This document shows, in pieces, positions 7,469-46,535 of a stretch of 64,000 nucleotides of DNA; the first letter of the stretch is position 1; the number at the start of each line of letters is the position of its first letter. Origin of the DNA: Candidatus Aminicenantes bacterium (GTDB lineage: Bacteria; Acidobacteriota; Aminicenantia; Aminicenantales; Aminicenantaceae). The notes below the pieces were generated by a model. That model saw only the letters and a list, made by a program, of their open reading frames with translations, was not told the origin of the DNA and made no database searches. The stretch is from NCBI GenBank assembly GCA_021162615.1, contig JAGGYH010000080.1, positions 34,899 to 98,898 of the forward strand. Direction: 5' to 3'. Both the position numbers and the translations under genes were made by a program.

Positions 7469-8641
7469 ATGACCCAAATAAAAAAACAAAACAAGCATCC
7501 TAAAAAACTGACATACGGCATGGTCGGAGGAGGAGAGGGGGCTTTCATCGGAGATGTGCACCGGAAAGCCATCGCCATGGACGGAAAAGCAGAACTTGCT
7601 GCAGGGTGTTTCTCCAGGGATTTTGAGAACACCAAAAACACAGGCCAAAGGCTGGGACTGGACAGCAGCCGGTTATACCCCACATACAAAGACATGTTTG
7701 AAAAGGAGAGCCAAAGAGAGGACGGCATTGACTTTGTGGTCATTGTCACTCCTAATAACACCCACTTCTCCATTTCAAAAGCTTCCCTGGAGCACGGAAT
7801 CCATGTGGTGTGTGACAAGCCCCTCACCATATCCAGCCGGGAGTCTGAACAGCTGGCTGAGATATCAGACGAAAAAGACCTCTTATTCTGTGTGACATAC
7901 ACCTATACCGGTTACCCCATGGTCAAGCAGATGAAAGCAATGATAGCCAACGGAGAACTGGGAGAAATCCGCTTCATAAACGCAGAATACCCTCAGGAAT
8001 GGCTGGCGGCCTCTATAGAAAAAACGGGGCAGAAACAATCCGTTTGGAGAACAGATCCCTCCCAGTCCGGTGCCTCGAACTGCGTGGGAGATATAGGGAG
8101 CCATATCGAAAATATGGTCTCTTATCTAACGGGCTTAAAAATCACATCTCTTTGTGCCCGTCTGGATACCTTTGTGGAAGGCAGGATTCTTGACGACAAT
8201 GCATCCATACTGGTGGAATATGACCGCGGGGCTAAAGGCCTCTATTGGAGCAGCCAGGTCGCCATTGGACATGATAACGGACTGAAAGTCAGAATATACG
8301 GGAAAAAAGCTTCCATTGAATGGTTTCAAGAAAATCCCAACTCCTTCAGGATATCTTATCTTGATAAACCCACAGAGATCATATCGCGAGGAAGAGACAA
8401 GATGGCCCTCTCCGCAGAAAGAGTATCGCGTGTCCCAGCTGGCCACCCTGAAGGCTATTTCGAAGCCTTTGCCAATATATACAGCACATTCCTCACAGCA
8501 CTTGACAAAAAAATCAATAAAATACCTCTAAAGGAAGAGGACGCAGACTATCCGGGTATCAAAGAAGGATATCAAGGAGTGAGGTTTATAGAAAGATGCG
8601 TTGAAAGTTCCCAGAAAGGAACGGTATGGGTTGACTTTTAA
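7469..8641 (+). CDS. Gfo/Idh/MocA family oxidoreductase (cytoplasmic, no signal peptide)
   Basis: GMVGGGEGAFIG Rossmann motif and CDKPLT motif. AGGAGG RBS. Confidence 0.8.
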   Translation: MTQIKKQNKHPKKLTYGMVGGGEGAFIGDVHRKAIAMDGKAELAAGCFSRDFENTKNTGQRLGLDSSRLYPTYKDMFEKESQREDGIDFVVIVTPNNTHFSISKASLEHGIHVVCDKPLTISSRESEQLAEISDEKDLLFCVTYTYTGYPMVKQMKAMIANGELGEIRFINAEYPQEWLAASIEKTGQKQSVWRTDPSQSGASNCVGDIGSHIENMVSYLTGLKITSLCARLDTFVEGRILDDNASILVEYDRGAKGLYWSSQVAIGHDNGLKVRIYGKKASIEWFQENPNSFRISYLDKPTEIISRGRDKMALSAERVSRVPAGHPEGYFEAFANIYSTFLTALDKKINKIPLKEEDADYPGIKEGYQGVRFIERCVESSQKGTVWVDF

Positions 8642-18729: not shown

Positions 18730-20118
18730 TTAAAGAGACCAACCTTTTCGGTATTCAGTATGAAGAAAATTGTTGGCTTCCGGAAGGTTTTTGAATTCCA
18801 TTTTCTTCCCGTCCCATTCCAGCTTGGTGTTTTTTGCCTTTGTGGCTACGGCTACATTTCCCAAAAGCATGACTTCAGTCAAAGTCCCGGAGTATGAAAA
18901 ATCCGTAGTGGATTTTTCGCCTTTTTTAATGGCTTCCACCCATTCCTCGTGGATGCCTGGAGAGCGCGGAATTGTTTTTTCCGGTCTTTTGTATTCCTGC
19001 ATCTTTGATTCCGGAATAATACGCGGATTGTTTCCATAAGTGCTATACATTAACATCCCTTTATCACCCACAAACAATCCTCCTCCTCCGGAGTCGCCCA
19101 TCATGCGGCCATCTTCCAGTTCAGCCGGCCTGGGAGGCATGATCCCTCCGTCATACCATTTGAGGGTTACAGGCGGCATTTTCCCCCTGGCCGGGAATTC
19201 ATAAGTCACCACCTCAGCAACAGGATAAGAGTCCTTGGTGAATTTGGTGGAACTGGCCTGAACAGATGTGGGATGTCCCAGCTTTAGGGCCCAAAAGGGG
19301 TGGTCCAGTATGTGAGCTCCCATATCTCCCAGAGCTCCTGTTCCAAAATCCCACCAGCCTCTCCAGCTAAAGGGATGATAAGCCGGATGATAGGGCCTGT
19401 ATGGAGCCGGTCCAAGCCAAATATCCCATGCCAATTCATCAGGCACAGGAGGCGTATCTTTGGGAGCCTCAATGCCCTGGGGCCATATGGGCCGGTTTGT
19501 CCAGCAGTGGACTTCCCTTACATCGCCTATGGCTCCGTCCCAGATCCATTCATTGATCAGACGGCCACCTTCTCCGGCATGACCCTGGTTGCCCATCTGG
19601 CTGACGATCCCTGCTTTTTTCGCAGCCTGAGCCAGCAGCCTCGCCTCTTTTACAGTGTGGGTCAAAGGCTTTTGAACAAAGACATGCTTGCCTCTTTTTA
19701 TGGCATTCATGGCGATCACAGCATGGTTGTGATCCGGGGTCGTAACCGTGACTGCATCTATGTTTTTCTCTTTATCCAGAAGCACCCGAAAATCTTGATA
19801 CTTATTCGCTTTCTCATACATAGCCTTCTGTTCGGGAGTGTTATGTTCCGAACCCAGGAATTTGGCCATTTCCCTGTCATCCACATCACACAACGCCACA
19901 ATATTTTCTGAACTCACGCTGCGGATATCAGAAGAGCCTTTTCCTCCGACCCCGATGCTTCCTATATTTAAGGTGTCACTGGGTGCTTTATACCCGGCTC
20001 CTCCCAGGACGTGACGGGGAATAATCATAAATCCAGCGGCAGTAGCCGCGCTTCGTCCTATAAATTCTCTTCTGGTTAAGGTTTTTTTTGATTCGCCTTT
20101 TTCTTTCTTGTTTTTCAT
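18730..20118 (-). CDS. Gfo/Idh/MocA family oxidoreductase, Tat-exported
   Basis: TRREFIGRSAATAAGFMIIP Tat motif, GSIGVGGKGSSD Rossmann motif, VQKPLT motif. Start trimmed to MKNKKEK (ATG at 20118, RBS AGAAGGGTG) from ORF-track 20154. Confidence 0.8.
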   Translation of the reverse strand: MKNKKEKGESKKTLTRREFIGRSAATAAGFMIIPRHVLGGAGYKAPSDTLNIGSIGVGGKGSSDIRSVSSENIVALCDVDDREMAKFLGSEHNTPEQKAMYEKANKYQDFRVLLDKEKNIDAVTVTTPDHNHAVIAMNAIKRGKHVFVQKPLTHTVKEARLLAQAAKKAGIVSQMGNQGHAGEGGRLINEWIWDGAIGDVREVHCWTNRPIWPQGIEAPKDTPPVPDELAWDIWLGPAPYRPYHPAYHPFSWRGWWDFGTGALGDMGAHILDHPFWALKLGHPTSVQASSTKFTKDSYPVAEVVTYEFPARGKMPPVTLKWYDGGIMPPRPAELEDGRMMGDSGGGGLFVGDKGMLMYSTYGNNPRIIPESKMQEYKRPEKTIPRSPGIHEEWVEAIKKGEKSTTDFSYSGTLTEVMLLGNVAVATKAKNTKLEWDGKKMEFKNLPEANNFLHTEYRKGWSL

Positions 20119-20171
20119 AATCACCCTTCTTTCATCTAAAGTTTGAAAAATCAAGTCTAATGATAACTATA

Positions 20172-20200
20172 ATATATATAGTTCTAAAAGCTCGAGTCAA
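20172..20200 (-). promoter_or_regulatory. Putative sigma70-type promoter for the Gfo/Idh/MocA gene
   Basis: On the minus strand: TTGACT, 17-nt spacer, ATATAT/TATAGT, about 45 nt upstream of RBS and start. Confidence 0.3.
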
Positions 20201-20247
20201 CAAAATAATCATATATATCACATGAAAGATCTGTTATAACTAGCCTG

Positions 20248-20961
20248 GATGATGAACGAGTCGAGGTTGCTGTGTTATTGCGAAGAACAAAGTGATGAAG
20301 CAATCTCATTGTGAAACGAAGCGTCATGAGATCACCACGCCGCTGCGCTCCTCGTGATGATAAGGGAGCTCAGGCCACGCCACCTTTTAACCTTGCGAAA
20401 TTCAGGTATGGCCTGTGCTCCCTTCAGATTTTTAACGCCATTCTTCTTCGTTTTTCTCGGCTCCTGCGTAACTCCCCCCGTCCGTGGGTCAGACATACTC
20501 GGAGCCCGGCTTAGCCGGGTTCCCTCAAAAAGCCTCATCCGAAGGCTAAATCTTCAATGTCGCCACGTCCACACCTGGTTTTCGTAAGGTTAACGTTTAT
20601 CCTATAAGATAAATAGTATTACGCACAATCCCAACTTTCAGTCAGGCTGGGTGGTTCTGAAGTCATCCGGAGGCGAGCGGGCATGGTTCCTCGCAGAGGG
20701 GAGCGAGCCGAGGAATAAGCTGATTTTACTCGCTGGGGAAAATCAGCGGGCTGAAGAACCAGCTTGCCTGATGAAAGCCGGGAGCACAGACCGCGCCTGA
20801 ATTTCACATCGGCTTGCCTCAAAAGTAAAAAAAAGACGATTAAAATGAAATACCTAACCAGGAAAAGAGCTGCTATCGTCATTCTTAATATAATCTTGCA
20901 TATCGCTGGAACAAAATGAATAATAAATACATCGCCATTTTATTATGAATAGGTCAGGCTA
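20248..20961. repeat. Copy 1 (longest, about 714 bp) of a mosaic non-coding intergenic repeat family (modules A-B-C-D-E plus an internal inverted copy of C/D)
   Basis: Shares a 5' module GATGAT..AGTCGAGGTTGCTG, an internal CAACTCCCCCCGTCC(A/G)TGGGT module, about 110 nt of near-identical sequence (GAGCGAGCCGAGGAATAAGCTGATTTTACTCGCTGGGGAAAATCAGCGGGCTGAAGAACCAGCTTGCCTGATGAAAGCCGGGAGCACAG) and a 3' terminus CATCGCCATTTTATTATGAATAGGTCAGGCT with copies at 33716-33977 and 44894-45254. No credible ORF. Confidence 0.8.
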
Positions 20962-20970
20962 AAGACAGGT

Positions 20971-21774
20971 ATGATGATTCTAAAAAGGAATGAAGCCGGG
21001 CTGGCTCTGGGCAGCGGTGCAGTCAGAGGCTATGCCATTTTCCCCATTATCAACAGAATAAAAAAAGAAGGCATCAACATAACAGCTGTGAGCGGTTCAA
21101 GCATCGGAGCCTTGATAGGAGCCTATTACGCTCTTCATGGAGAGGCCGACTCGCTCCTGAAACAGGCCGTAAAATTAAGGAAAAAGGACTGGTTAAGACT
21201 CGTTGACCCCAACAAACCAAATATTTCCCTCATCAAAGGAGAAAAAATAAAAAAATTTCTCTCAAACCATTATTATGGAGACGCAACCTTTAAAGACACC
21301 AAGGTCCCTCTGGTTGTATGCGCCACTGACCCGATTAAGAGAAAAAGCGTGTATCTCGACGGAGGGAAAATCATTGATGCGGTCATGGCATCCATATCCA
21401 TCCCCGGGATTTTCCCTCCTTATAAGATCAATAACCGGTTGTTAAATGACGGCGGGATCCTGGACCCTGTCCCGGTCAAACCTCTCAGAGATATGGGGAT
21501 AAAGAAAATCGTGGGCATAAACCTTATGGGATATATAGAGCCGAATCCGGATAAGGATATGGACCTCATCTCTTCCCTTTTGAACACATCCTATATGATG
21601 ATGGAGCAGATCTCAAAAAGAGAGGGAAATAAAAATCTCTTTATACTCGAGCCGAAATTCACTCCAGACCCTCCCCATATGCTTTCCTTCTATAAATGGA
21701 AGGACAAGCATAAAATCGGCCGGCAACTTATAGATAAGAAGATAAACGAATTAACAGCCTGGCTTAAAAAGTAA
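20971..21774 (+). CDS. Patatin-like phospholipase
   Basis: Oxyanion GSGAVRG, nucleophile elbow GSSIG, and catalytic Asp in LNDGGILD. Confidence 0.8.
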   Translation: MMILKRNEAGLALGSGAVRGYAIFPIINRIKKEGINITAVSGSSIGALIGAYYALHGEADSLLKQAVKLRKKDWLRLVDPNKPNISLIKGEKIKKFLSNHYYGDATFKDTKVPLVVCATDPIKRKSVYLDGGKIIDAVMASISIPGIFPPYKINNRLLNDGGILDPVPVKPLRDMGIKKIVGINLMGYIEPNPDKDMDLISSLLNTSYMMMEQISKREGNKNLFILEPKFTPDPPHMLSFYKWKDKHKIGRQLIDKKINELTAWLKK

Positions 21775-33300: not shown

Positions 33301-33713
33301 TTCTTCAGGGCTTTCTTACAGGGAACCGGCATCAACAGCGCAAGCAGATTGGTTATGACTATGGAGTTCTGTTCCTGGTTCCATTTCCGAAAAAACCTCA
33401 TTCTTGAAGAGACTGAATCCATAGAACAAGGAGTATCCTGATAAGGGCTGTCAGCCAAATGAGGGAAAATGTCAGACTCCTGATTCATCGACAACTGGGA
33501 AAGAAAAAAATCGCATTTTTCCTTAACGTTTTGTAGCGATGAGCTCACAGGGCAGAGAAACACAATGTTTTTCTCAGTCTCCCTCTTTATTGAAGACAAA
33601 AAATAAGGTTTTGCCTGATCAATGACCCCGGATATACTGAGGGCCTTTCCACTGCTTAATCCGCTTATCAGCTTCTTAAATTCTTCTGTTTTTGTTATAA
33701 AATCAATACTCAT
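30384..33713 (-). CDS. mfd: Transcription-repair coupling factor Mfd
   Basis: UvrB-homology N-region, RNAP-interaction domain, helicase motifs GDVGYGKTEVA / DEEQRFGV, TRG region. Start trimmed to MSIDFIT (ATG at 33713, RBS AGGTGA). The ORF-track extension to 33791 would read through a conserved repeat module. Confidence 0.85.
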   Translation of the reverse strand: MSIDFITKTEEFKKLISGLSSGKALSISGVIDQAKPYFLSSIKRETEKNIVFLCPVSSSLQNVKEKCDFFLSQLSMNQESDIFPHLADSPYQDTPCSMDSVSSRMRFFRKWNQEQNSIVITNLLALLMPVPCKKALKKLFLEIENGVTLDREDLIGVLENYGYERQDIINSHGEYAFRGGIVDVFSPLESYPFRIEFSGETVRSLRKFETSSQRSVERIDFLHIPSMREFPAAKDSEPCFVFHSKVNEQPFCRLKEYLGDCIYVIDDYDEVKKEWGQLQKEFKEQYEKLRKRNIFSLSPEEIFEFPFLDEVKDSAVRLNEIPSSSLKEHIAFSFQSVPTFKNKIPFFLTYLKKLQKESERSAIYISSKGVREKVSLILSENEIPFLEADHPFIEAKDGSVVLLIGKMGRGFSYPELKINYFSENDIFTEEKVLVSRPKTKAFLSHFQDLKTGDYVVHTDYGVGIFKGLVEMGVDGGKQEFIEINYRDDDKLFVPVQDLNLVQRYSRVGAAFPNLSKLGSPQWVKSRERVKKGIEKMAKELLHLYAKRMAQEGYAFSQKGMWQSDFEKTFEYEETGDQELAIKEVMDDMESSLPMDRLLCGDVGYGKTEVALRASFKAVMDGKQVAVLCPTTVLASQHLKTFQNRMLLFPVRVEGLTRLQSQSVQKNIVRDIKKGLVDIVIGTHRLISGDVEFKDLGLLVVDEEQRFGVKHKEKIMKMKSDIDVLTMTATPIPRTLNFSLSGLKDISLIETPPKDRLAIHTIVTLYSKKLISSAIKRELNRNGQVYFVHNRVEDIDTMAGMIKKWVPQAHVVTVHGKMRGAQLEKRMLDFIQGKYNVLISTTIIENGIDIPLVNTLIVNRAERFGLAQLYQLRGRVGRSSRQAFAYFLVSPSSKLTRKAKERLIAIQEFAELGSGFRLAAKDLEIRGAGNFLGEEQHGFMEAVGFEYYMFLLDQTVKKLRGEQTEPRKSRIDLKVNIRIPDAYIPQLSLRMDLYKRVSSIEELSELDKIKEEIRDRYGSFSQSVMNLFDYGKIKLLAQKAGIETLDRMRNKIVLKFFADSTADVSKLIGLVEKYSGSMTPQGIVTLMLGSENESNILHETICILKQLTLL

Positions 33714-33715
33714 AA

Positions 33716-33977
33716 GTGATTCACCTGTAATATTCACAAGTCGAGGTTGCTGCAGATGCGAGGCCCAGGGTGCGAAGCTGTGGTCCTTCACCGCGAGTGC
33801 CCTGTAACGAAGCAGATGCAGTGAGATCGGCTTGCCTAAAAGGTAAAAAAACGGCGATTAAAATGAAAGTGAAAAAAGCAATAACATTTCATTTATCATT
33901 TTTATAAAAAACATGTCTATCCTGTAAAGCAAAACAAAAAAATACTCATCGCCACTTTTTTATGAATAGGTCAGGTT
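33716..33977. repeat. Copy 2 (shortest, about 262 bp) of the mosaic intergenic repeat family (modules A, partial middle, D, E)
   Basis: GTGATTCACC..AGTCGAGGTTGCTG at the 5' end, ATCGGCTTGCCTAAAAGGTAAAAAAACGGCGATTAAAATGAAAG (module D) and CATCGCCACTTTTTTATGAATAGGTCAGGTT (module E), matching copies 1 and 3. Its 5' end lies 3 nt from the mfd start codon. Confidence 0.75.
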
Positions 33978-34092
33978 CATTATAAAAGATTTTTGTTTGG
34001 GAGGCTAGGGGTGTTGCCTTAGTGACAGGTAATAAGGGTTGAAAGAGTGTTGGGAAAAGTGTAATGTTTTGATTGAAAGAGCCAGGGACCTT

Positions 34093-44778: not shown

Positions 44779-44893
44779 TTTAAAATCAAATTAGTGCAAA
44801 AAAATTAAAGGGGAAATGTACCACTTTTTCCCTAAAAAAGCAAGAACTCAAAGCCCCAAAAACGTGACCCCAGAAAATCATGTCTCTAACTTC

Positions 44894-45254
44894 GATGATT
44901 CACCAGTCGAGGTTTCTGCGCAACTCCCCCCGTCCATGGGTGATCCTGGTCATTCATAAAATATGGTTGCGTTTCCAACACATTTACCATGATCGGCTCT
45001 CTTATCATTCTTAATTCATTAAGAACATACTTCTTACGTTGGTACATGTAATAATTTTACTTTATGCAACCATATTTTACCTTCATAGGCGAGCCGAGGA
45101 ATAAGCTGATTTTACTCGCTGGGAAAAATCAGCGGGCTGAAGAACCAGCTTGCCTGATGAAAGCCGGGAGCACAGGCCACACCTTAATTTCAGATCGGCT
45201 CGCCTGAAATGCAAAACAATGAACATCGCTGTTTTTTTATGAATTGTTCAGGCT
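44894..45254. repeat. Copy 3 (about 361 bp) of the mosaic intergenic repeat family (modules A-B-unique-C-D-E)
   Basis: GATGATTCACCAGTCGAGGTTTCTG, CAACTCCCCCCGTCCATGGGTG, then near-identical GGCGAGCCGAGGAATAAGCTGATTTTACTCGCTGGGAAAAATCAGCGGGCTGAAGAACCAGCTTGCCTGATGAAAGCCGGGAGCACAGGCC, then TTATGAATTGTTCAGGCT at the 3' end, which overlaps the folC stop. Confidence 0.8.
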
Positions 45255-46535
45255 AACCGCTTTTTTCATCTCTCCCACAATATATAAAGATCCTGCAATC
45301 AATATGGAACCGGTCCTCCCCGCGTAACAAAGAGCCGACCTAAATGCCTGAACCGGATCAGGCTCACACGTGATTTTATGCTTATGATGGAGGGTTTCGG
45401 ACAGTATCTCTTCCGGAGAGGCCGCTCTGTAAAATCGAAATCTGGTGACAATGACCCTGTCTGCTTTTGGAAACAGTATATCAGAGATCTCCTTTATTTT
45501 CTTCCCTTTCATCACTGCAAATATCAGCACGGAAACAGAACCTGTAAATTCGTCCAGGTACTCTCTCAAAGCCTTGGCGCCTTCGATATTATGGGCGCCA
45601 TCCATAATAATCAGAGGTTTTCTAGAAATGATTTCCAGCCTGCCCGGCCATTCTGCTGACTCGATCCCTTTAATGATCTTCTCTTTATCCAGCTTCCGGC
45701 ATCTTTGATGGATCTGTTCAGCGATCCCAATGGCTATGGCCGCATTTTTTCCCTGATGAACTCCGGGTAAACATGTTGAATACCTGTACGCTTTATCATT
45801 GAGAATATAATCAAAGATAAACCGGTCCCTTATTTTTTTCTTCATAAAGCTCGTGTTATTCCCGAACACATCAAAAAACGGAGCCTTGAGCTCTTCGGCT
45901 CTCTTTTGAATGACCCTCTTCGGGTCTTCATCAATGACACCTGAGACGACAGGAACTCCCGGCTTAATGATTCCTGCCTTTTCAAAAGCGATTTGAGAAA
46001 GACTTTCCCCCAAATACTCCTGGTGTTCTCCTGAAATGGTCGTGATCGCCGTTACCACAGGGTCCACAGCTGTAGTGGCATCAAATCTTCCCCCCATCCC
46101 GACCTCCAGCACTGCCATGTCAACACAACTCTCTTTAAAATAAAGCACCGCCAAGAGGGTCATGAGCTCAAAATAGGTAGGAGGCGTTTTAAGTACACCC
46201 CTGTCTATCAGATTTTGTATTTTTTGTTTTAAAAACTCCAGCAGCCGGCAAAATTCCGTTCTGTGAATAAGGTCATCTCCAATCCTTATCCGTTCCTCAA
46301 TGTCAACCAGATGGGGAGATGTGAAAAGCCCGCACTTTATTCCATGTGAGGTCAAAATCCTTGTCACCATCGCACACACAGAGCCCTTCCCGTTTGAACC
46401 GGCGACCTGGATTGTTTTGAAGTCTTTTTGAGGATCGCCCAATTCGCTCATTACAGCACGGACATTATCAAGACCGAATTTTATGCCCAAGGATTGTATA
46501 CGTGCTAGATAACTCAGACAATCCCGGTAATTCAT
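45237..46535 (-). CDS. folC: Bifunctional folylpolyglutamate synthase / dihydrofolate synthase
   Basis: Mur-ligase P-loop QVAGSNGKGS. Central and C-terminal Mur ligase domains. Confidence 0.85.
   Translation of the reverse strand: MNYRDCLSYLARIQSLGIKFGLDNVRAVMSELGDPQKDFKTIQVAGSNGKGSVCAMVTRILTSHGIKCGLFTSPHLVDIEERIRIGDDLIHRTEFCRLLEFLKQKIQNLIDRGVLKTPPTYFELMTLLAVLYFKESCVDMAVLEVGMGGRFDATTAVDPVVTAITTISGEHQEYLGESLSQIAFEKAGIIKPGVPVVSGVIDEDPKRVIQKRAEELKAPFFDVFGNNTSFMKKKIRDRFIFDYILNDKAYRYSTCLPGVHQGKNAAIAIGIAEQIHQRCRKLDKEKIIKGIESAEWPGRLEIISRKPLIIMDGAHNIEGAKALREYLDEFTGSVSVLIFAVMKGKKIKEISDILFPKADRVIVTRFRFYRAASPEEILSETLHHKHKITCEPDPVQAFRSALCYAGRTGSILIAGSLYIVGEMKKAVSLNNS

Follow-up and report, generated by a model that had tools for sequence, protein, structure and literature searches.

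The inverted arms of an intergenic repeat in Candidatus Aminicenantes are the ends of an element nested in a miniature transposon

Introduction

Among described systems, those closest in kind to the repeats reported here are miniature transposons and mosaic repeats such as BOX and BIME. Insertion sequences of the IS5 group have miniature elements with a 4-bp target duplication of the YTAR type. The Correia elements of Neisseria are about 100-150 bp long, and have 26-bp inverted ends, a TA duplication, and transcript hairpins that are cut by RNase III. Modular intergenic repeats made up of a few hairpin-forming modules are known as BOX elements in Streptococcus pneumoniae and as BIME/REP mosaics in enterobacteria, and the insertion of IS1397 into REP sequences is a precedent for nesting into palindromic repeats. 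Inverted repeats of 26 bp placed a few hundred bp apart are also typical of invertible DNA switches.

Here, we describe a repeat system in a window of 64,000 nt from a Candidatus Aminicenantes bacterium (contig JAGGYH010000080.1, positions 34,899 to 98,898). Motif searches of this window found three plus-strand copies of an intergenic repeat, which we call U: copy 1 (~20244-20958), copy 2 (33724-33975), and copy 3 (44890-45252). Copy 1 contains a second repeat, E, which ends in a pair of inverted arms. Miniature transposons are a good fit for U and a partial fit for E. Like the miniature elements of the IS5-group type, U is ~253 bp long and multi-copy, with 14-bp inverted repeats, 4-bp duplications, and an orthologous site that is empty. 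A search of the loci examined for elements bounded by U ends gave no autonomous partner that would name its transposase family. E has inverted ends too, but it lacks the duplication. It resembles the Correia elements in being short, non-coding, and abundant, with ends of ~26 bp that are able to pair if transcribed. This is a likeness by description. E is ~409 bp long and lacks a duplication, of TA or any other kind, and its structured interior consists of two halves of opposite polarity.

With the BOX and BIME/REP mosaics, the Aminicenantes repeats share variable combinations of modules, no linked protein gene, and end modules able to pair. Their sequences and phylum are different, however, their modules have an excess of G-U on one strand, and exchange takes place where one hairpin tip replaces another; we do not count them as members. 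Finally, E is reminiscent of large structured RNAs of bacteria that are linked to mobile elements, such as HEARO, the guide RNA scaffold of IscB, in that it is several hundred nt long, highly conserved, and multi-copy, with sharp boundaries, but it has no Rfam match on either strand and no associated protein gene.

Results

The inverted arms of copy 1

An earlier note on this DNA had claimed a 26-nt inverted duplication inside copy 1. Direct reading and a repeat finder both confirmed it: GAAATTCAGGTATGGCCTGTGCTCCC at 20397-20422 is the reverse complement of GGGAGCACAGACCGCGCCTGAATTTC at 20780-20805, with Watson-Crick pairs at 22 of the 26 positions and 2 G-T pairs, so that 24 of 26 pair as RNA when wobbles are counted. 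The two perfect 10-bp blocks of the note were found as described. The 6 nt between them are not purely a loop, however, as the central positions read, in order, T-G, A-C, T-G, G-C, G-C, and C-A, which amounts to 2 G-C pairs and 2 G-T wobbles alongside 2 A-C mismatches. Complementarity extends to 29 nt (20394-20422 with 20780-20808, 83%), leaving 357 nt between the arms, in agreement with the ~360 nt noted before. Two further partners of the 5' arm, absent from the earlier note, lie at 20362-20377 (16 nt, 94% complementary) and 20569-20593 (25 nt, 84%).

The match between the arms is not due to chance. When the intergenic region (20155-20970) was shuffled 300 times with dinucleotides preserved, the top-scoring inverted match of 26 nt without gaps had a mean of 17.2 and a maximum of 21, so that none of the 300 attained 22.

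The host element U

In copy 1 (20244-20958, plus strand), nested material has enlarged a U element from its normal length of ~253 bp to 715 bp. It is flanked by CTAG (20240-20243) and CTAA (20959-20962), and bounded by a left terminal inverted repeat at 20244-20257 (CCTGGATGATGAAC; family consensus CCTGGATTATTCAC) and a right one at 20945-20958 (ATGAATAGGTCAGG). Comparison with intact cores identified GAGTCGAGGTTGCTG at 20258-20272 as a remnant of the 5' strands (P1/P2) of the U core hairpin. The apical part of this hairpin, ~72 nt, is missing and has been replaced by 20273-20806. The replacement opens with module C (20273-20361), another repeat module of the family with matches in L077, L045, and L136, and continues with a degenerate direct copy of the arm module (20362-20390; AAGGGAGCTCAGGCCACGCC...), which forms a local hairpin with the 5' arm, followed by TTCAGATTTTT. 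Behind the replacement, at 20807-20944, come the 3' strand of core helix P1 (ATCGGCTTGCC, 20808-20818) and the tail module of U, whose small reading frame has decayed in copy 1, with its start lost and a TGA in frame. All of these features were assigned to the plus strand.

Copy 2 (33724-33975, plus strand) is a standard U of 252 bp between TTCA and TTCA, with an intact core hairpin at ~33736-33836 and an orthologue in L083. On the plus strand it is predicted to fold into a hairpin of ~100 nt (-50.7 kcal/mol, z -3.8), compared with a z of -0.1 on the minus strand.

Across the family, U has 14-bp terminal inverted repeats and a modal length of ~253 bp. We surveyed 84 distinct units bounded by CCTGGATTATTCAC ... 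ATGAATAGTTCAGG, and found an exact 4-bp target duplication in 29 of them, compared with 7.9% in a control pairing flanks from different elements. Length 4 alone gave this result, and the duplicated sequences were mostly TTAA, TTAG, or CTAA. Orthologous loci of copy 1, recognized by a Gfo/Idh/MocA oxidoreductase gene on the minus strand and a patatin-like gene on the plus strand, were available from relatives whose patatin-like proteins were 91, 87, 75, and 73% identical. In the 87% relative (L167), an intergenic region of 135 nt runs straight across the site, without the whole of 20244-20958, while the 91% relative (L165) carries a standard 252-nt U elsewhere in the same intergenic region, between TTTA and TTTA. 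From its inverted ends, its target duplication, and the comparison of an empty with a filled site at orthologous loci, U is shown to be a miniature transposon that inserts with target duplications.

An Aminicenantes MAG encodes a protein 99% identical to the patatin-like one that flanks copy 1. Many metagenome contigs with an identical copy of this downstream gene break off within copy 1, as is usual for a repeat, while two contigs of greater length are 98.7-98.9% identical across it.

The core hairpin and its distribution

Genomes, a single one for each species, were scanned for the 3' core pattern, which yielded at least 104 loci, nearly all in Candidatus Aminicenantes MAGs, with ~10 U-core loci in single MAGs among the matches listed. 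At most of these loci, the unit is intact and resembles copy 2. The core hairpin is ~102 nt long (example at 33736-33836; L009-L112), strongly covarying and strand-specific, and has conserved internal loops. For 96 distinct cores, the consensus fold reached -25.9 on the given strand compared with -8.8 on the other, with 274 G-U against 25 A-C combinations and many base pairs represented by at least two Watson-Crick types. The hairpin may be an undescribed RNA carried by the transposon.

No hits were obtained with Rfam 15 at the gathering threshold over the whole window, including all three copies, and a search by E-value of 20100-21050 and 33700-34000 gave chance-level hits only (E >= 1.9). 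Weak hits to C/D-box snoRNAs were rejected, as they reflect nothing but strings like UGAUGA and CUGA. Viral contigs scanned with the core 3' pattern and the B motif gave 0 hits. Literature searches on Aminicenantes repeats, mostly too loose to be informative, found nothing.

Downstream of the core (20819-20944, 33838-33961, and many other loci), U carries AAAGG, 7 nt, an ATG, and then a short frame. A frame of 39 codons (MAIK...SPFFYE) was considered as a toxin-like peptide, but we do not claim it as coding: it is open in just 16 of ~80 candidate frames, variation is flat over the codon positions (28.5 / 27.8 / 29.1), and other copies of U read its conserved end motif in other frames. The same region contains a pairing of ATGGCGAT ... 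ATCGCCAT and a T-run, which together look like a long terminator-like stem.

The ends and architecture of element E

The two arms are the ends of E (20397-20805; no strand assigned), a composite repeat of 409 bp in copy 1, and independent copies align to exactly that span. Because the copies were collected with a D-half probe, a 23-mer found 57 times in 52 metagenome stretches, the sample is biased towards elements having D. More than 20 copies with unrelated flanks align with 80-93% identity from ~20394-20398 to ~20775-20810 and stop there, so that the arrangement proposed in the earlier note recurs, end to end, in other long copies. E is 383-448 bp long, mostly ~409 bp. Both arms are present in at least 13 distinct full copies from Aminicenantes metagenomes, and 13 of these make up our curated alignment (mean column identity 88%); in 12 copies with distinct flanks, 18-26 of the 26 arm positions pair when G-T is counted.

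From left to right, E starts with the 5' arm (20397-20422, plus strand), which is complementary to the module at the 3' terminus of the B half. The B half itself (20397-20593, minus strand) is a structured module closed by 20397-20413 with 20567-20583, a helix that is extended in copy 1 to 20387-20411 / 20569-20593. The internal partner of the 5' arm (20567-20583, plus strand) is degenerate in copy 1 (CCACACCTGGTTTTC; family consensus AGCCACACCTGAATTTC). It is followed by an A+T-rich spacer between the halves (20594-20632, no strand assigned), which is poorly conserved among the 13 aligned copies. The D half (20633-20778, plus strand) is a long hairpin module with a closing helix of ~20633-20666 and ~20749-20778, and its 3'-terminal module is the 3' arm (20780-20805, plus strand), with which E ends on the right; the consensus fold of the family leaves this arm unpaired. 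A promoter/terminator scan of copy 1 (20000-21100) found no site of either type inside E, and no match to a sigma-70-like promoter in the spacer.

The predicted folds of the two halves point in opposite directions. For 13 copies, the consensus fold of B reached -62.4 on the minus strand compared with -39.0 on the plus strand, with 76 G-U against 5 A-C. That of D reached -52.0 on the plus strand and -39.7 on the minus strand (G-U 61, A-C 7), although this polarity is moderate, as the minus-strand fold of D likewise has 36 G-U against 3 A-C. Such a G-U excess is partly inherited from a common ancestor, and would equally fit a hairpin of single-stranded DNA.

Distances from an arm to the next inverted arm fell into only three clusters (46-52, 186-189, and 408-413 nt), plus one of 448, which indicates that E has a single left arm, and that the right-arm sequence is present twice, once internally and once at the terminus. 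In many genome loci, the arm sequence forms the last 26 nt of a conserved module, B. B also occurs alone, co-oriented with the U core and placed between the outer stem strands of the core (L019, L032, L081). We considered whether B was an inverted insertion peculiar to copy 1, but rejected this, as the metagenome copies show B plus D to be the standard unit. E is probably built of a minus-strand B and a plus-strand D, set back to back with the same module of ~26 nt at each outer edge. The module facing outward at both edges accounts for the terminal inverted repeat that the earlier note had seen, and for its correct reading of the 5' arm as an inverted duplicate of the conserved 3' module, with the arms bracketing the whole interior. 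In sum, what the two arms make up is an object of a familiar kind, the terminal inverted repeat of a repeat that is nested, and E is probably a discrete, non-coding, multi-copy repeat specific to Candidatus Aminicenantes and nested in the miniature transposon U.

Copy 3 and other variants

Copy 3 (44890-45252, plus strand) is a U of 363 bp, flanked by CTAA on both sides, which contains a truncated E without the 5' arm. Its E is reduced to a fragment of B (44916-44941), an inverted part of U (~44942-45098), and the 3' part of the D half (45089-45165), followed by the 3' arm (45166-45191). The module shared by the two copies, to which the 3' arm had been correctly assigned, extends over 20703-20836 and 45089-45222 (91%). 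From the missing arm it had been concluded that copy 1 gained its 5' arm. The direction of change is the reverse: both arms are ancestral ends of E, and copy 3 was truncated and rearranged and lost one. Full copies of E with an inverted U at the same place as in copy 3 (L156, L136) indicate that copy 3 is a cut-down E rather than the ancestral state.

For the sequence GCGAGCCGAGG at 20703, we considered a role as another "5' motif" belonging to a core unit. This was rejected in favour of a better explanation, by which the sequence is shared with the reverse complement of the 3' strand of P1 in U and is where the junction of copy 3 was formed.

Copy 3 adjoins folC (45237-46535, minus strand), the frame of which runs into the repeat. 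The last five codons and the stop (…SLNNS*) lie in the right inverted repeat of U, and the two codons before these overlap the CTAA duplication (window 45237-45256). The insertion appears to have replaced the original 3' end of folC.

Several further variants of E were observed. A 94-nt internal deletion (window equivalent 20652-20745) recurs in L004, L118, L121, and L125, bounded by the similar motifs CAGGC(T/G)GG and CAGCGGGCTG (CAGGC..GGCTG); L004 is another assembly of the locus of copy 1 itself. L133 and L060 are orthologous sites in two species, both located behind the same glycoside-hydrolase-like gene; one E is full and the other internally deleted, so that at least some copies of E predate the split of these species. 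One copy in L153 (~8120-8180) abuts an opposite-strand sequence (…GGCGAGGGACGGAATTGAACCGCCGAC…) with the look of a tRNA gene 3' end. Finally, the outer 12 nt of the arms of E (ATGAAATTCAGG / CCTGAATTTCAT; 20397-20408) resemble the terminal repeats of U (ATGAATAGTTCAGG / CCTGGATTATTCAC; 20945-20958) minus 2 nt, facing the opposite way. This likeness may be a coincidence or a shared protein-binding site.

Pairing of the arms

Three pairings of the 5' arm were compared by duplex energy on the plus strand of copy 1. The distal pairing with the 3' arm was predicted to be the strongest (-45.3 kcal/mol), followed by the internal (-35.9) and the local one (-34.9). When 20394-20808 was folded alone, the distal helix was present in both the minimum-energy and the centroid structure (z -5.7), and it was predicted in 10 of 13 isolated full copies of E. 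For 20245-20850, the minus strand also folds with the distal helix, but the minimum-energy fold of the plus strand takes the 5' arm into the local hairpin at 20362-20424, in which the arm pairs with 20362-20377 (59-63 nt, -32.3 kcal/mol, z -6.1). The folding of the whole element suggested by the earlier note thus gave the distal helix for isolated E, but the local hairpin for the plus strand with its upstream context.

Evolutionary evidence was taken from comparison of a small sample of copies of E, with a partner-shuffle control that ignores relatedness. At the distal helix, 82.5% of cells pair, compared with 81.6 +/- 0.8% after shuffling of partners, and 95 of 500 shuffles reach the observed value. 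Covariation there is 0.158 against 0.147 (reached by 108 of 500), and pairing within copies is no better than between copies (permutation p 0.13-0.2). Its mismatches, 34 G-U and 44 A-C, show no strand polarity, so that neither compensatory change nor polarity marks the distal pairing as a conserved RNA helix. The internal helix (columns 1-17 with 172-188) behaves differently: 88.2% of its cells pair compared with 84.9% after shuffling, and covariation is 0.152 against 0.090, neither being reached in any of 500 shuffles (permutation p 0.003-0.008). Moreover, when 16 copies were folded to a consensus, the 5' arm was paired with the internal site whichever strand was used. The arms are able to pair, but the marks of selection lie on the internal pairing only, which is evidence rather than proof.

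Other partners of the arm module were seen elsewhere. In L115, L147, L154, and L136, a terminal arm is followed by its inverted partner (AGGTGGTGTGGTCTGTGCTTC) and a T-run, making up a terminator-like hairpin, and window 20362-20424 at the left end of E is a hairpin of the same type. The arm thus has alternative partners, reminiscent of the choice between terminator and anti-terminator. In L041, L098, L100, and L111, the module forms a tight hairpin of 46-52 nt, ATGAAATTCTGATGTGGCT...AGCCACACCTGAATTTCAT, with a recurrent pair of U-U and A-C mismatches in a CUGAUG / CCUGA context and a kink-turn-like look; the example in L100 shows compensatory GGTT/AACC changes.

Discussion

One reading to be weighed is that the arms clamp E, or the whole of copy 1, into a giant hairpin, with a terminal helix of 26 bp enclosing the interior in a one-strand transcript. 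The arrangement is conserved, with 82.5% of cells paired, and the distal duplex is the most stable one in copy 1; the folds of 20394-20808, of the minus strand of 20245-20850, and of 10 out of 13 isolated copies all contain it. The D half, the 3' arm, and the 3' strand of P1 are also co-oriented on the plus strand of copy 1, and in B-type copies of U a helix of the same sequence closes an apical domain just inside the P1 stem, which provides an analogy. Nevertheless, covariation is no higher than column composition gives, and the polarity of G-U over A-C, seen in every well-supported helix of the family, is missing. The consensus fold favours the internal partner, the arm-bearing B half is antisense on the plus strand, and in context the upstream hairpin (20362-20424) captures the 5' arm. 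We consider such a clamp quite unlikely. Of the original proposal, then, the terminal helix predicted for isolated E stands, and its status as a selected structure does not. As for a cruciform, none is to our knowledge expected with a 357-bp spacer, and the arm pair is without support as either a selected RNA clamp or a cruciform. Two further readings take the arms as DNA sites. E could be a classical miniature transposon moved by cut-and-paste, with its 26-bp arms as the binding sites of a transposase supplied in trans. This would suit a short (~400 bp) element with terminal inverted repeats, sharp ends at the arms, no reading frame, and many dispersed copies, found in either orientation beside the same neighbouring motif in genomes that clearly host active elements of this kind, namely U.

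No consistent target duplication was found for E, however, at lengths of 3-10 and offsets of +/-4 in 12 copies with distinct flanks, while the 4-bp duplication of U was found easily as a positive control. Clean empty sites were not seen either, as the junctions are replacements; no longer or protein-coding element with the arms as its ends was present in ~1 Mb of loci; and no transposase-like or recombinase-like reading frame recurred in 156 loci, where only housekeeping-looking clusters were found. There is, moreover, a third instance of the arm sequence within E, and others lie in short hairpins. Cut-and-paste movement of E is therefore rather unlikely in our view. Still less credence, close to none, is due to an invertible switch, in which a site-specific recombinase would flip the 357-bp interior between the inverted arms. 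E adjoins an ATCGGCTYGCC motif in either orientation, but at different loci. At the locus of copy 1, the orientation is the same in the window and in L001, L002, L131, and L145 (consensus assemblies, in which a minor orientation could hide), and no recombinase gene adjoins copy 1 or recurs near other copies.

We return, then, to E as a nested repeat whose arms are its ends. The arms probably matter as the boundaries of the copied unit and as the 3'-terminal helix strand of each module, whereas pairing between them would be a by-product that forms only in a read-through transcript of the whole element. The hairpin tip of U is replaced variously by B, E, or other modules, and in some copies ~50 nt of E is replaced by an inverted U. 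Variants seem to come about when one segment replaces another at a short motif held in common, and not through clean insertion.

A bolder reading is that the U core hairpin and the B and D modules belong to a new class of structured mobile RNAs peculiar to Aminicenantes, with the 26-nt module and its partner helix as a docking or closing element. We regard this as a long shot, less probable than the clamp. The docking or closing element might then serve, e.g., in processing, in terminator / anti-terminator pairing, or in RNA-templated copying, and the terminal helix of E would form in the full-length transcript as part of propagation.

More generally, where intergenic DNA is rich in repeats, covariation should be tested across the family before an apparent long-range helix is read as RNA structure. 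The repeats also break assemblies at the locus of copy 1, where several contigs stop inside the element, and in copy 3 the final codons of folC come from a repeat. Of more interest than the arm pair is the wider family of structured modules. In a candidate phylum known solely from metagenomes, there are dozens of copies per genome of a modular repeat system, made up of a miniature transposon with a hairpin of ~102 nt that varies in a strongly compensatory manner and at least two larger structured modules, none of them in Rfam. If these modules are functional RNAs, they would represent new classes of ncRNA.
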